A stretch of 64,000 nucleotides of DNA, taken from Kiritimatiellia bacterium (lineage in GTDB: Bacteria; Verrucomicrobiota; Kiritimatiellia; RFP12; UBA3636). Shown here one piece after another: positions 59,188 to 63,862 of the stretch. The notes below the pieces were generated by a model that worked only from the letters and a program-made list of their open reading frames with translations, had not been told where the DNA came from and did not search any database. Position numbers and translations under genes: made by a program. The stretch is taken from the NCBI GenBank assembly GCA_045589455.1, contig JAZNPC010000060.1:1506-65505 (forward strand). The letters run 5' to 3'. How positions within the stretch are numbered: position 1 is the first letter of the stretch; each line of letters opens with the position of its first letter.

Positions 59188-59256
59188 CGTATTCTCTTTG
59201 TTATGTTTGTTTCAGGGTCTCCTAGGGCCTCATCATAGACATAGAAAGAGAATACG
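59188..59256. promoter_or_regulatory. Inverted repeat upstream of the 59295 gene: perfect 12-bp arms separated by 45 nt
   Basis: cgtattctcttt (59188-59199) / aaagagaatacg (59245-59256), followed by TTTTT, 38 nt before the ATG. Confidence 0.45.
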
Positions 59257-59294
59257 TTTTTATTGTAAATTAACAAAACCAAAGGAATGGAAAT

Positions 59295-59975
59295 ATGAAG
59301 AAAATATCAATATTGTTTGCCGTAGCAATCGCTATGATAAGCACAGCTTCATTTGCAAAAACAAATCCACATAAAGGTGAAGCCATTTATGTTGAAGAGA
59401 TTATAGAAACCATGGTTCAAATTCCTGGTAAAGATTATCTTATGGGCAAATATGAGGTAACTCAAGCCCAATGGCAATCAATAATGGGTAACAATCCTTC
59501 ATATTTTACAGGCGATTCATCTCGTCCAGTAGAGTGTGTTTCATGGTATGATTGTCAAGAGTTTATTGAGAAGCTTAACGCTCGAGCAGAAGTAAAGCAA
59601 GCAGGCTTAACCTTCTTCCTACCAACAGAGGAGCAATGGGAGTATGCTTGCCGTGCAGGAGGCACAGGTAAGTATGGCTTACTTGCAGATGGGCGAGATG
59701 GCTCCCTTGATGAGATGGGGTGGTATAAATATAATTCAGGAGACGAAACGCATCCAGTAGGACAGAAGAAACCCAATGTATGGGGGTTATACGATATGCA
59801 TGGTAATGTGTGGGAGTGGACAGCGTCGGCAAATGGTTTTTTCCGTTTTAACCGTGGTGGTAGCTACTATCATGATGCGTCTGTCTGCGAGTCGGATTTC
59901 AGGAACTGGTTCAGTCCCGATTACAGGTGCAGCTACCTCGGCTTTCGCCTCGTCGCCTCTAGGACAGGTTATTAA
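59295..59975 (+). CDS. Secreted FGE-sulfatase (SUMF1 / C-type-lectin-fold) domain protein; candidate DGR variable protein
   Basis: Signal peptide, then YEVTQAQWQ, VSWYDCQEF, LPTEEQWEYACRAG, GLYDMHGNVWEWT and a C-terminal RGGSYYHDASVCESDFRNWFSPDYRCSYLGFRLV. Confidence 0.85.
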   Translation: MKKISILFAVAIAMISTASFAKTNPHKGEAIYVEEIIETMVQIPGKDYLMGKYEVTQAQWQSIMGNNPSYFTGDSSRPVECVSWYDCQEFIEKLNARAEVKQAGLTFFLPTEEQWEYACRAGGTGKYGLLADGRDGSLDEMGWYKYNSGDETHPVGQKKPNVWGLYDMHGNVWEWTASANGFFRFNRGGSYYHDASVCESDFRNWFSPDYRCSYLGFRLVASRTGY

Positions 59976-60078
59976 CTGTGCTAAAAGAAAAGAGGAGGCG
60001 AAGCAAGCGGTGCAAATAAAAAGCACCGCAAGCAAGCCTCCGATAAATGTTTTTCAACCCGTCAAAAAGGTTGAAAAA
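59974..60078 (+). repeat. Copy B of the double-hairpin 3' module
   Basis: It starts inside the stop codon. The ggaggcgaagcaagcggtgc-aaataaaaa-gcaccgcaagcaagcctcc core is identical to copies A and C. The second hairpin ttttcaacc/ggttgaaaa lacks a T-run. Confidence 0.8.
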
Positions 60079-60336: not shown

Positions 60337-62724
60337 ATGAGAACAAATAAAAAAATACTATTGACAATATTGTCTGGATTTATATGCTTTGGACAAGTAT
60401 TTGGGCAAACAGATGAGCAAAAAGCAGCTGCGGAACGCCAAGCATTCTTCGATGAATATTGGAATGAATTAGCATCTAGAATAAACGAGCGTATAACATA
60501 TAAGGACAGAGAAGAATATTTACAGGCTGTAAAATCGCAACTATTGCATGACAATAATGATGGAACGGTTTTATTAGATGAATTTGCATCTGAATATTTG
60601 CCTAATACTTTTGCTAAATATGAAAAGGCACGTGAAAAGTCATTAGAGATTGGACAAAATCTTAAATCAGTCTTTACAAAACCATTAGATGATAATTCAC
60701 CAGAATGGCCTAGCTATATAAAGGCGACAGAAAAGTATTGTCAAATCCTTTGTGATGAAAAACGAATCCAGAATGGAATTTCATATATTTATTTATTCCA
60801 TAAGGTTGGAGCAATGAGTGATGATATGCTCGCTGAGCTTGATAAATCAGAAAAAATGAATTTTTGGTTTGAGATTGATTTTAAGCATGATTTAAATCAA
60901 TACCAAATAAAGAAAGTGGAAGGAGTTATGGAATTTGCGCAAAAGAATATGCCAGAAACCTTTGCTCTATTAGAAGCTTTTGAAAAAGAAATAAATGAAA
61001 CAAAAGTGCAGTTTGATGGAATATATGCAGAGGCAGAGAAGCAAAATTATTTCCTAGGAAATACAACACACCCAGTCTTTGTCGCATTTGAGTTTAAATA
61101 TAGAAAAACAATAGAAAAATATAATACCATAATGCAGCAAGTAAAGAATCTTCAGGTTGAGCATTTGCTTTTAGAAGTAACAGGAGATGATTTGGCTTCA
61201 CAAGATATCAAAATCGCTAAAGAGTATAAAGCCTTTAAAGATTCCTTACCAGAATTTGTAAAAACTAATGCACATAAGGGTGTAGCCTTATATGTTGAAG
61301 AGATTATAGAAACCATGGTTAAAATACCAGGAAAAGATTATCTTATGGGTAAATATGAGGTAACTCAAGCTCAGTGGCAATTAATTATGGGTGAAAATCC
61401 ATCGTATTTCAAAGGCGATTTATCTCGTCCTGTAGAGCAAGTTTCATGGAATGACTGTCAGAAGTTTATTGAGAAGCTAAATTCTTATTCCAATGAAGCT
61501 GGGTTAACCTTCTTCCTGCCAACCAAAGAGCAATGGGAGTATGCTTGCCGAGCAGGAAGCACAGGCGATTGGGGATTACTTGCTGATGGCTCAATGGGTA
61601 CACTTGATGCTATGGGCTGGTACGAAAATAATTCAGGACGCAAGACGCATCCAGTGGGGCAAAAGAAGCCAAATGCTTGGGGCTTATACGATATGCACGG
61701 CAATGTGGGGGAGTGGACTGCCTGGGAGTACCGCGACTATAACCCCATCTACTGTGGCGGTGGCTGGGATGATAGCGCTTGGTTTTGCAATACTGGCAGC
61801 GGGAGCTACAGCAACCGTGACCGCAAGTTAGACGGGGACGACGATCTCGGCTTCCGCCTCGCTGCTCGGCGTATAGTTGAATTAGTTATAAAAGCCAAGT
61901 GTGATGGAAAGTTTATTTCTGGTGAGGATTTAGTCCAATTAGGTGGCAAGCAATATGACATAGGAGAAGCTTTTGAAGTAATTGATGGAACTAACTATGG
62001 TGATGCAGAAATTAGATGCAACATAGGAGGAAAGAATTATTCAGGGCAAGTATCTATAGGCAAAGTTACGTGGAAAGGCACAAAGGAATTTGTCGTTGAC
62101 TTAAAAGAAATAAAAGAGCAACCAAGGATAACGGTAGCGGGCATAGAAATGGTACGCATACCAGATAATGCTACCCATAAAGACTTGTACTTTGGTAAAT
62201 ATGAGGTTACTCAGGCTCAATGGCAAGCAATAATGAGTAATAATCCTTCATGTCATGAAGGCGATTCATCTCGCCCAGTGGAGTTTGTTTCATGGTATGG
62301 TTGCCAAGAGTTTATTAAGGAGCTAAATGCTCGTGCGGATGTAAAGCAAGCAGGGATCACATTTAGATTGCCAACAGAGGAAGAGTGGGAGTATGCTTGC
62401 CGAGCAGGAAGCAAAGGCAAGTATGGCTTTCTTGCAGAAGGGCGAGAAGGTTCTCTATACGAGATGGGTTGGTATTGTGATAATTCAGGAGACGAAACGC
62501 ATCCAGTAGGACAGAAGAAGCCAAATGCATGGGGGTTATACGATATGCATGGCAATGTGTGGGAGTGGACTGCCTCAGCTTATGGTTCTGGCCGTTTTAA
62601 CAAAGGTGGTAGCTACTTTAATTTTGCGTCTTACTGCGAGTCGGATGAAAGGGGCTGGGACGATCCCGATGACGGGTACTACAACCTCGGCTTCCGCCTC
62701 GCTGCCTCTAGGACAGGAAAATAA
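60337..62724 (+). CDS. 795-aa secreted protein: unique alpha-helical N-terminal region, FGE domain A (aa ~318-512), a linker domain, and FGE domain B (aa ~598-795); candidate DGR variable protein
   Basis: Signal peptide. There are two complete FGE-sulfatase domains, each with ..YEVTQAQWQ.., ..EWEYACRAG.., ..GLYDMHGNV.EWT.. and ..LGFRLAA.. Domain A resembles the 59295 gene and domain B resembles the 30313 gene. Confidence 0.85.
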   Translation: MRTNKKILLTILSGFICFGQVFGQTDEQKAAAERQAFFDEYWNELASRINERITYKDREEYLQAVKSQLLHDNNDGTVLLDEFASEYLPNTFAKYEKAREKSLEIGQNLKSVFTKPLDDNSPEWPSYIKATEKYCQILCDEKRIQNGISYIYLFHKVGAMSDDMLAELDKSEKMNFWFEIDFKHDLNQYQIKKVEGVMEFAQKNMPETFALLEAFEKEINETKVQFDGIYAEAEKQNYFLGNTTHPVFVAFEFKYRKTIEKYNTIMQQVKNLQVEHLLLEVTGDDLASQDIKIAKEYKAFKDSLPEFVKTNAHKGVALYVEEIIETMVKIPGKDYLMGKYEVTQAQWQLIMGENPSYFKGDLSRPVEQVSWNDCQKFIEKLNSYSNEAGLTFFLPTKEQWEYACRAGSTGDWGLLADGSMGTLDAMGWYENNSGRKTHPVGQKKPNAWGLYDMHGNVGEWTAWEYRDYNPIYCGGGWDDSAWFCNTGSGSYSNRDRKLDGDDDLGFRLAARRIVELVIKAKCDGKFISGEDLVQLGGKQYDIGEAFEVIDGTNYGDAEIRCNIGGKNYSGQVSIGKVTWKGTKEFVVDLKEIKEQPRITVAGIEMVRIPDNATHKDLYFGKYEVTQAQWQAIMSNNPSCHEGDSSRPVEFVSWYGCQEFIKELNARADVKQAGITFRLPTEEEWEYACRAGSKGKYGFLAEGREGSLYEMGWYCDNSGDETHPVGQKKPNAWGLYDMHGNVWEWTASAYGSGRFNKGGSYFNFASYCESDERGWDDPDDGYYNLGFRLAASRTGK

Positions 62725-62838
62725 CTGTGCTAAAAGAAAAAAGGAGGCGTAGCAAGCGGTGCAAATAAAAAGCACCGCAAGCAAGCCTCCGAAAAATGTT
62801 TTTCAACCCGTTTTAAGGGTTGAAAAACCAAATTTTTT
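62723..62838 (+). repeat. Copy C of the double-hairpin 3' module (second hairpin is the terminator at 62799-62838)
   Basis: Same core as copies A and B. tttttcaaccc (62799-62809) / gggttgaaaaa (62817-62827) plus T6. Confidence 0.85.
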
Positions 62839-62983
62839 GATGACAATATGAGCCAATTTAAAATTTTCTTTGTCCCACATATAACCTGTTTCTAATCTAA
62901 TATTAGAACAAAAATCTGTTAACACATTGAGTTAGTATTCTTAGGAAGAAAACCCAATGTGTTTTTTTGTCGCTGACGCTCTG

Positions 62984-63530
62984 GCCTTCGGCGAAACGCG
63001 GAGAAAAAAGAGGCTCGGAGACACGGAGGTATTCTGGGGTAATTGTAGTGATTGCTTGCACAATTCTCCACGTCTCCGCGTCTCCGTGTTAAGCGTAAGC
63101 AATAAGTGCAACGATTAGCATAGTCCTCCTTTTCCTCCGTGAGAATCACACTTCGTGTGTCCGTGTTAGGCGAAAGCAATGAACGAAAGTGATTTAAACG
63201 CTCTTGCTCAAGCCTTCGGCGAAACACGGAGAATAAAGAGAACGGAGACACGGAGGGGTTTGGGGGTAATTGTAATGGTTGTTAGTATAGTTCTCCCTTG
63301 TCCTCCGTTCTCCGTGTTAGGCGTAAGCAATAAGTGTAACGATTTAAACGCTAACGCTTGAGCCTTCGGCGAAACACGGAGCACACGTAGTGTGGTTTTC
63401 AAGAGAACGGAGACACGGAGGGGTGCTTGGGATTGTTAGAATAATTGCTTGCACAATTCTCCTTTGTCCACCGTAAAAATCACACTATGTGTGTCCGTGT
63501 TGAGCGAAAGCAACGAGTGCGAAAAAGGGA
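62984..63530. repeat. Array of three 150-230-nt structured palindromic units (gccttcggcgaaacRcggag ... aacggagacacggagg ... cctccgtKctccgtgttaRgcg)
   Basis: Unit starts at 62984, 63212 and 63362. Each carries long-range complementary arms, e.g. 63374-63395 (aacacggagcacacgtagtgtg) vs 63481-63501 (cacactatgtgtgtccgtgtt). A fourth, truncated copy is at 1-60. Confidence 0.75.
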
Positions 63531-63829
63531 TGCTGCGACGCGGAGGACGCAGCGGACGAGATTAGACGCGAGACAACCGATAGACAATTAGACGATAGAC
63601 GTTGAACGGACAATAAGACGATTAGACGCGAGAATGGAGAAAAAACCATTCAACCCTACCTAAATTCTTCATTCTTCATTTTTCATTCTTCATTTATTAT
63701 AATGCATCGCCTCCGCGTCCCTTCTTCGCACTTTTAGCCCCCACGTGCATCACATAGCCCCACGTGCATCACATAGCCCCACATTAAAGCAAAAAATCCC
63801 GTGGGTTAATCTTGCGGGATTTTTTTTTC
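63517..63829. repeat. Right arm of the long inverted repeat (partner of 58565-58930)
   Basis: Reverse complement of the left arm, with an extra ~58-nt cgtcta-word insertion (63560-63625) and a duplicated 19-nt unit ccacgtgcatcacatagcc. Confidence 0.8.
63791..63828 (-). terminator. Terminator hairpin of the convergent downstream gene
   Basis: A6-tcccg-tgggttaatcttg-cggga-T9. Same stem as the pckG terminator. Confidence 0.7.
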
Positions 63830-63862
63830 TTTTATAAGCTTCAATTTATATTTTAAAAATAA

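Follow-up and report, generated by a model that had tools for sequence, protein, structure and literature searches.

In the diversity-generating retroelement (DGR) of Bordetella phage BPP-1, which comprises Mtd, a template repeat (TR), Avd and the reverse transcriptase (RT) bRT, adenine-specific mutagenesis of AAY codons alters a CLec-fold binding surface, and the variable region (VR) ends at its 3′ side in a GC-rich initiation of mutagenic homology (IMH) sequence with an inverted repeat downstream (PMC5758913). The DGR of Treponema denticola has one TR and one RT for up to seven remote targets of the FGE-sulfatase type (FGE, formylglycine-generating enzyme; PMC4891356; PMC5758913), and orphan and ‘excessively mutated’ targets are found there alongside intact ones (PMC4891356). 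This DGR, whose cassette is of the HRDC type (‘architecture C’ in Wu et al. 2018), is the closest precedent for the locus described here, a 64,000-nt stretch of DNA from a Kiritimatiellae bacterium (assembly GCA_045589455.1, contig JAZNPC010000060.1, positions 1,506 to 65,505 of the forward strand; the whole of it is referred to below as the window). The window carries three FGE-fold genes (c1, c2 and c3) and our reading, to which we give a probability of about 85%, is that the last ~35 variable codons of each are the VR of a DGR target protein. Their membership in a complete DGR is unproven.

The likeness to T. denticola is close in several respects. As with the TvpA-type proteins, the targets are small lipoprotein or secreted FGE/CLec proteins whose last ~45 residues form the VR, with LGFRLA at its end; there are several paralogous targets, scattered over the chromosome at a distance from any RT; and decayed targets coexist with intact ones. 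The differences are that the host phylum is Kiritimatiellae, of the Planctomycetes–Verrucomicrobia–Chlamydiae (PVC) group, and not Spirochaetes, that the scaffold of the VR is GGSYY..AS.CESD.R.W..PD.R where TvpA has GGSW..., that c3 is a 795-aa target with two FGE domains, and that the system here is known from its targets alone, with no cassette type assigned. BPP-1 offers the same model of adenine mutagenesis in AAY codons, although that DGR is phage-borne with a single adjacent target lacking an FGE subdomain, whereas the targets here are multiple and chromosomal. TvpA-like targets of multi-target DGRs are a known kind, to which c1–c3 would add members from Kiritimatiellae; a literature search returned no report pairing Kiritimatiellae with a DGR.

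Three probable target genes and their variable regions

The genes and the VR cores within them are listed here.

30313..31050, + strand: c1, a 245-aa FGE-fold protein with a lipoprotein-type signal (LGCGK), from the open reading frame (ORF), Pfam and an AlphaFold model with 2Y3C as its top fold match
59295..59975, + strand: c2, a 226-aa single-domain FGE-fold protein with a signal peptide, from the ORF and Pfam
60337..62724, + strand: c3, a 795-aa predicted secreted protein with two FGE domains, from the ORF and Pfam
30907..31011, + strand: VR core of c1, from codon comparison and an eight-copy alignment
59832..59936, + strand: VR core of c2, from the same comparison and alignment
62581..62685, + strand: VR core of c3 (codons -48 to -14), from the same comparison and alignment

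The last ~360 nt of c1, c2 and c3 are 81–83% identical, and the c2/c3 alignment is free of gaps. All three proteins match Pfam FGE-sulfatase (PF03781) with E = 1e-31 to 1e-53 and the matches extend to the C-terminus. In c3, where the family is matched by two stretches (the better at residues 611–789), the order is signal peptide, an N-terminal region of ~330 aa and the two FGE domains, first the internal one and then the C-terminal one, which bears the VR. The signal peptides of c1–c3 were judged by reading the N-terminal sequence. The internal FGE domain of c3 (61348–61865) has a divergent C-terminal stretch, yet it keeps LGFRLAA and an IMH-like piece (61831–61865, 89% identical to 62671–62705), and this stretch may be an old, internal VR.

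Codon changes in the variable block

Comparison of c1–c3 codon by codon, from codon -48 to codon -14, reproduced what the initial annotation had described for this block: 14 codons are identical at the nucleotide level in c1–c3, the other 21 all differ non-synonymously (18 of these 21 at positions 1–2 only), and the four codons directly upstream show synonymous differences only. The block is also, as stated there, richer in GC (48–54%) than the genes that contain it (40–44%); the window has 41%. The comparison was widened to the DNA of 13 further VRs from related loci, five of which (L001, L003b, L010, L019 and L021) retain the scaffold of c1–c3 and come from at least three other Kiritimatiellae genomes. 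These five and c1–c3 make up the set of eight copies with an intact scaffold used in what follows.

In the 105-nt core the eight copies have 30 hypervariable columns, which fall on codon positions 1, 2 and 3 in the numbers 15, 15 and 0. A is present in at least one copy at every one of the 30 columns and is the commonest base there (A 42%, T 30%, G 23%, C 4%), whereas it occupies just 3 of the 61 columns that are invariant in all eight copies. Third positions are invariant throughout the set in 30 of the 35 codons. The DNA immediately upstream behaves differently: in the 300 nt before the core the paralogs differ by 15–17%, with ~30% of third positions changed, and the differences between c2 and c3 are 16 at positions 1–2 against 32 at position 3 (Fisher p = 3e-10 for the contrast in codon position between the hypervariable columns and these 300 nt). 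One of the genomes with the same scaffold has 85% nucleotide identity to the window in housekeeping genes (housekeeping DNA of the window against that of L002/L003), and the VR scaffold is nucleotide-identical between species that share only ~85% nucleotide identity. The synonymous sites of the scaffold are therefore homogenized across both paralogs and species. Changes that do not involve adenine number about one to three per VR in c1–c3, or roughly 1.7% per site by a count of singletons.

The column pattern, the base spectrum, the frozen synonymous scaffold and the coincidence with the Asn codons of genuine TRs (see below) all fit the adenine mutagenesis of a DGR that had been proposed from the three paralogs, and synonymous sites that stay frozen amid saturated change at positions 1–2 are explained only by copying from a common template with errors solely at adenines. 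In the mechanism that we propose an invariant TR would be transcribed, the DGR RT would copy the TR RNA faithfully except opposite adenines, and the resulting cDNA would take the place of the VR, with the conserved GC-rich 3′ boundary as its anchor; one TR would serve many dispersed paralogs in trans. As the adenines lie in AAY codons, change is confined to codon positions 1–2 and no stop codon can arise.

The inferred template repeat and control DGRs

When A is restored at the hypervariable columns the inferred TR has the core AATGGTTCTAACCGTATTAACCGTGGTGGTAGCTACTATAATAATGCGTCTAACTGCGAGTCGGATAACAGGAACTGGAACAATCCCGATAACAGGAACAACAAC, followed by CTCGGCTTCCGCCTCG..., and translates to NGSNRINRGGSYYNNASNCESDNRNWNNPDNRNNN and then LGFRLA. 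In the template put forward earlier four codons were wrong and should be GCG rather than ACG, GAG rather than GAA, AAC rather than AAA and AAC rather than TAC. The exact core of the corrected TR is AATGGTTCTAACCGTATTAACCGTGGTGGTAGCTACTATAATAATGCGTCTAACTGCGAGTCGGATAACAGGAACTGGAACAATCCCGATAACAGGAACAACAACCTCGGCTT, or NNTGGTTCTNNCCGTNTTNNCCGTGGTGGTNGCTNCTNTNNTNNTGCGTCTNNCTGCGNGTCGGNTNNCNGGNNCTGGNNCNNTCCCGNTNNCNGGNNCNNCNNCCTCGGCTT when N is put at every A.

Genuine TR ORFs and RT–TR fusion ORFs read ...SNRVNRGGSWNNNARNCRSANRNNNSPDNRNNNLGFRLA, and the Asn positions of genuine TRs (the TR ORFs, the RT–TR fusions and the TR of the control DGR L012) correspond almost one-to-one with the hypervariable codons here. 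The two exceptions are a W that is fixed in our copies and one extra variable site. In L012 itself all 13 mismatches between TR and VR lie at TR adenines, seven having changed to T, six to G and none to C. For bRT–Avd in vitro it has been reported that ~48% of template adenines are unchanged and that misincorporation puts A (22%), C (18%) or G (12%) into the cDNA (PMC7826257); by our conversion the coding strand then has T (22%), G (18%) or C (12%) at these sites. The rank order found here (A > T > G > C) is the same as that of bRT–Avd from BPP-1 in vitro (PMC7826257) and of L012.

The control DGRs are HRDC–RT–TR systems of Lentisphaeria/Victivallales (L012; L013–L016) and so share with our locus both the PVC superphylum and the FGE-type layout of the VR. 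Besides the agreement of TR Asn codons with variable codons, they have the same bias of A to T and A to G, and the 3′ boundary CTCGGCTTCCGCCTCGCT of L012 is identical to ours. They differ in that their target adjoins HRDC–RT–TR, whereas nothing of the kind lies within 10 kb here. Their TRs (GGSWNNNARNCRSANRNNNSPDNRNNN) cannot have written the VRs of c1–c3 because the non-A positions differ. Within the control DGRs (L012 4563–6177; L013–L016) the order is target, HRDC, RT, TR, and often the RT ORF runs on through the TR, so that the TR forms its C-terminal end and bears a spurious FGE-sulfatase Pfam match, a handy marker for DGRs in protein databases.

Fold and likely function

The proposal that these are FGE/CLec-fold targets of the TvpA type was supported by the Pfam matches and by searches in which TvpA came first both by sequence and by fold. 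The best match to c2 in the PDB by sequence is TvpA (2Y3C, the variable protein of the T. denticola DGR) with E = 1.2e-28, as against ~1e-5 for catalytic FGEs. A fold search with the AlphaFold model of c1, a model of moderate quality, also placed 2Y3C first (E = 2e-10, TMq 0.51). The core of this model is confident; in the VR segment confidence is low, as a hypervariable alignment would lead one to expect. Most likely, then, c1–c3 are exported variable ligand-binding proteins, in which the C-terminal FGE/CLec domain would, by analogy with TvpA, present the variable residues as a ligand-binding surface. NCBI labels these proteins as formylglycine-generating enzymes. The region that would hold the active-site residues of an FGE is the hypervariable block, and the ORF listing of the window had no sulfatase gene adjoining c1–c3; the annotation is probably misleading for these genes.

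The 3′ boundary and downstream hairpins

The features at and beyond the 3′ end of the VRs are as follows.

31012..31042, + strand: IMH-like 3′ boundary of c1, from conservation
59937..59967, + strand: IMH-like 3′ boundary of c2, from conservation
62686..62716, + strand: IMH-like 3′ boundary of c3, CTCGGCTTCCGCCTCGCTGCCTCTAGGACAG, from conservation in the copies, with a putative function
62743..62790, + strand: hairpin 1, 3′ of the c3 stop codon, an imperfect stem of ~20 pairs with a 9-nt loop
62791..62838, + strand: hairpin 2, terminator-like (62798–62828 plus a T tail), followed by a T run
31078..31118, + strand: downstream hairpin of c1 (z = -4.5), unlike the c2/c3 hairpin in sequence and equivalent in position
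59976..60078, + strand: post-stop hairpin module of c2, 93% identical to 62725–62827
29169..29299, + strand: orphan module of stop codon, CTGTGCTAAA and double hairpin, with no FGE ORF before it

At the end of the block the 31-nt tail CTCGGCTTYCGCCTCGYYGCCTCTAGGACAG is conserved in c1–c3, in agreement with the initial annotation, and this GC-rich tail is nearly invariant in nine copies, including paralogs whose scaffold has decayed. The term IMH applied to it earlier is plausible in view of this conservation. Variation ends at CTCGGCTTCCGCCTCG..., a boundary kept in the nine copies and common to L012, the first 18 nt of the tail being identical to the 3′ end of both TR and VR in that control DGR.

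Stable hairpins follow every VR. In c2 and c3 the stop codon is followed by CTGTGCTAAA and then by two stable hairpins, and folding of 62686–62850 gave z = -6.5. Hairpin 1 is conserved in eight of nine copies, c1 having a different hairpin in the same place, and the c1 type is also found 3′ of the target in L020. The downstream hairpin is longer than that of BPP-1 and occurs once without a VR, in the module at 29169–29299, which is 92% identical to 62709–62838 (92–95% against the c2 and c3 modules). Its equivalence to the BPP-1 cruciform is doubtful for this reason, and since hairpin 2 is in addition terminator-like we have downgraded hairpin 1 as a DGR-specific cruciform and do not claim it as one: it may be either a DGR target cruciform or part of a terminator. 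The orphan module lies between a UDP-glucose dehydrogenase gene, whose end is 80 nt away, and c1, which follows after about 1 kb. It could be what is left of a deleted target, or else a portable element of the terminator type.

Related loci and turnover

An exact-match look-up of the window’s own proteins found none on record. A protein search returned a large family of close homologs, from Kiritimatiellae wherever a source was named. In 38 of these homologs the domain core is 83–95% identical to the window copies, and the VR (the last ~40 residues before LGFRLA) only 28–58%. In a sample biased by its clustering, pairs of homologs with 94–97% core identity have VRs that are just 21–64% identical, and some VRs are mosaic, pairs being alike in one half and different in the other (P0013/P0552/P0009). 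Paralogs with a decayed scaffold also occur (P0007/L002, L003c, P0023/L006, P0016/L017 and L020). Our reading of these comparisons, and of the scaffold shared between species, is that rewriting went on, slowly or in episodes, long after the Kiritimatiellae lineages compared had diverged.

The family extends to other architectures. A Pkinase–FGE target with the c1–c3 scaffold is present in a Kiritimatiellae metagenome-assembled genome (MAG; L019) and resembles the Pkinase–FGE core target of L012. Among the further forms (L006 10001–10867, L019 1–1646, P0020/P0022/P0026) are an N-terminal zinc-ribbon fusion and a Pkinase–zinc-ribbon–FGE fusion, and the zinc-ribbon target belongs to a defence-like island that also contains Fic, GmrSD and PLD genes. 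There is in addition a second scaffold type in the family, GGSW..AE.CEAD.R..., which would need a different TR.

If a cognate cassette were found, this would be a multi-target DGR in the Kiritimatiellae, a little-studied group. The proteins diversified by it would be an entire family, predicted to be secreted and of lectin fold, with at least three members in 64 kb plus the further architectures (zinc-ribbon fusion, kinase fusion and two-domain form). Through a scaffold that is nucleotide-identical across species one can ask how genomes keep or share a TR, and the intact and decayed targets form a natural series for the gain and orphaning of DGR targets.

Search for the cassette and alternative explanations

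A number of results weigh against the reading of these blocks as DGR-written VRs. A six-frame motif scan of the window revealed no RT of the DGR clade ([ILV]GxxxSQ, YxDD), and blastn at word size 7 found no TR-like copy there, its only matches being the VRs of c1–c3 and the internal one of the two FGE domains in c3. No RT lies within 10 kb of any of about 12 related target loci. Searches of IMG/VR with the corrected TR patterns and of phage and plasmid collections by blastn with the inferred TR gave no match, and no TR ORF or RT–TR fusion with the c1–c3 scaffold was present among the 120 TR-like peptides and 120 RTs listed. In clusters at 90% identity the VR is usually identical (0 of 40 columns) against 13–25 differences elsewhere in the protein, and pairs at 97% core identity or above all agree in their VR, although this strain-level comparison is biased by its use of 90% clusters and the top 120 matches. 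Two proteins are found unchanged across many assemblies, P0007 in 27 and P0023 in 32. The scaffold itself has about 10 substitutions at non-adenine sites, including CGT to AAA in c3 at 62602–62604, which adenine mutagenesis does not explain because three adjacent changes fall on non-adenine scaffold positions. Finally, the hairpin module occurs without a VR at 29169–29299. At 62602–62604 the AAA (Lys) of c3 stands against CGT (Arg) or a one-step variant in the seven other VRs and about 35 homologs.

As regards the searches themselves, gene listings of the related target loci contained no avd or HRDC gene nearby. Scans of genome and metagenome collections with a long N-pattern, the exact guessed TR and a short N-pattern gave one extra VR (L001) and carry no weight as absence: in these patterns codon -16 was made to begin with T, whereas that base is hypervariable (AAC in L003b, AGC in L010) and most likely A in the TR, and so they could not have revealed the TR. 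The guessed N-rich TR peptide, used as a query, did retrieve genuine TR ORFs of other lineages by the dozen, and the peptide method therefore works. For the RTs the query was the RT of a control DGR from the PVC group; many of the 120 listed were fused to a TR, and in neither open frame did any of them show the c1–c3 scaffold. A ‘Verrucomicrobia’ RT (P0318) has a TR that is high in GC and unrelated. A profile search with the VR region against 1.84 billion representatives was dominated by multi-repeat FGE proteins and contained no RT–TR fusions.

The alternative that deserves most attention is that the VRs are orphans, written by a DGR in the recent past whose RT/TR core has since been lost, and now frozen and decaying by ordinary mutation. 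The window contains neither RT nor TR, no RT was seen near any related target examined, near-identical strains have identical VRs and decayed-scaffold paralogs exist, and there is a precedent in T. denticola, where 8 of 17 isolates have target genes without RT or TR (PMC4891356). However, the scaffold of c1–c3 is nearly perfect (roughly 1.7% per site against a species divergence of 15%) and is equally perfect in at least four genomes, so that rewriting must have outlasted the split of these lineages and any loss must have been both recent and repeated; the part of the genome examined is, moreover, 64 kb only. We accordingly regard orphaning as possible and rather unlikely. We lean, with some reserve, towards a cognate cassette that is still in this genome or on a mobile element carried there. 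Whichever of these holds, the identity of VRs among near-identical strains indicates that the activity of the system is low, episodic or past. A more speculative idea, which we think improbable though not negligible, is that a single horizontally mobile cassette, perhaps borne by a phage or an integrative and conjugative element (ICE), acts in trans on dispersed FGE-lectin genes in several Kiritimatiellae species. The cassette would then be missing from chromosomal contigs because it is phage- or ICE-borne, and its targets would be recognized through a portable ‘landing pad’ made up of the IMH-like tail and the hairpin module, a pad that might itself move or stay behind, as at 29169–29299.

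Explanations that dispense with a retroelement fare far worse. Diversifying selection on a binding surface combined with gene conversion among paralogs might produce a mosaic of this sort, positive selection being plausible for proteins with signal peptides and probable ligand binding, and half-shared VRs could stem from recombination between paralogs. Selection, however, neither freezes interspersed synonymous sites nor confines change to positions 1–2 (15/15/0), and it accounts neither for A as the commonest base nor for a spectrum of T > G >> C; gene conversion would homogenize the variable columns too, and there would be no explanation for why the variable codons match the Asn codons of real TRs. 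We therefore consider this very improbable. Least credible of all is an assembly artefact in which collapsed or chimeric paralogs give an apparent variable block. The window does seem to come from a 70-kb metagenome-type contig, and paralogous repeats break assemblies (many of the relatives are on contigs of 1–3 kb), but the three ORFs are intact and in frame, their alignment is gap-free, and several studies, as well as NCBI MAGs, supply independent assemblies with this architecture and scaffold.

Other features of the window and related loci

Every FGE gene in the window is flanked by long repeat-rich non-coding stretches (29300–30312, 58540–59294 and 62840–63850). These include a direct repeat (29420–29530 and 30039–30158, 90% identical), tandem units at 62978–63116, 63206–63344 and 63311–63474, and inverted copies of 58565–58931 at 63516–63827. 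Scans of the window against Rfam and for tRNAs gave no match. The targets of L001 and L010 have similar repeat-rich tails 3′ of them. In L017, from a relative of ~38% GC, a 6-kb gene-free stretch of higher GC (2400–8000) lies upstream of a c1-type target; it contains no long ORFs and no VR-like match and is probably an rRNA operon. Elsewhere in the window, 25372–27633 is a single 753-aa ORF that resembles a MurC–MurB fusion, as judged by eye from its translation.

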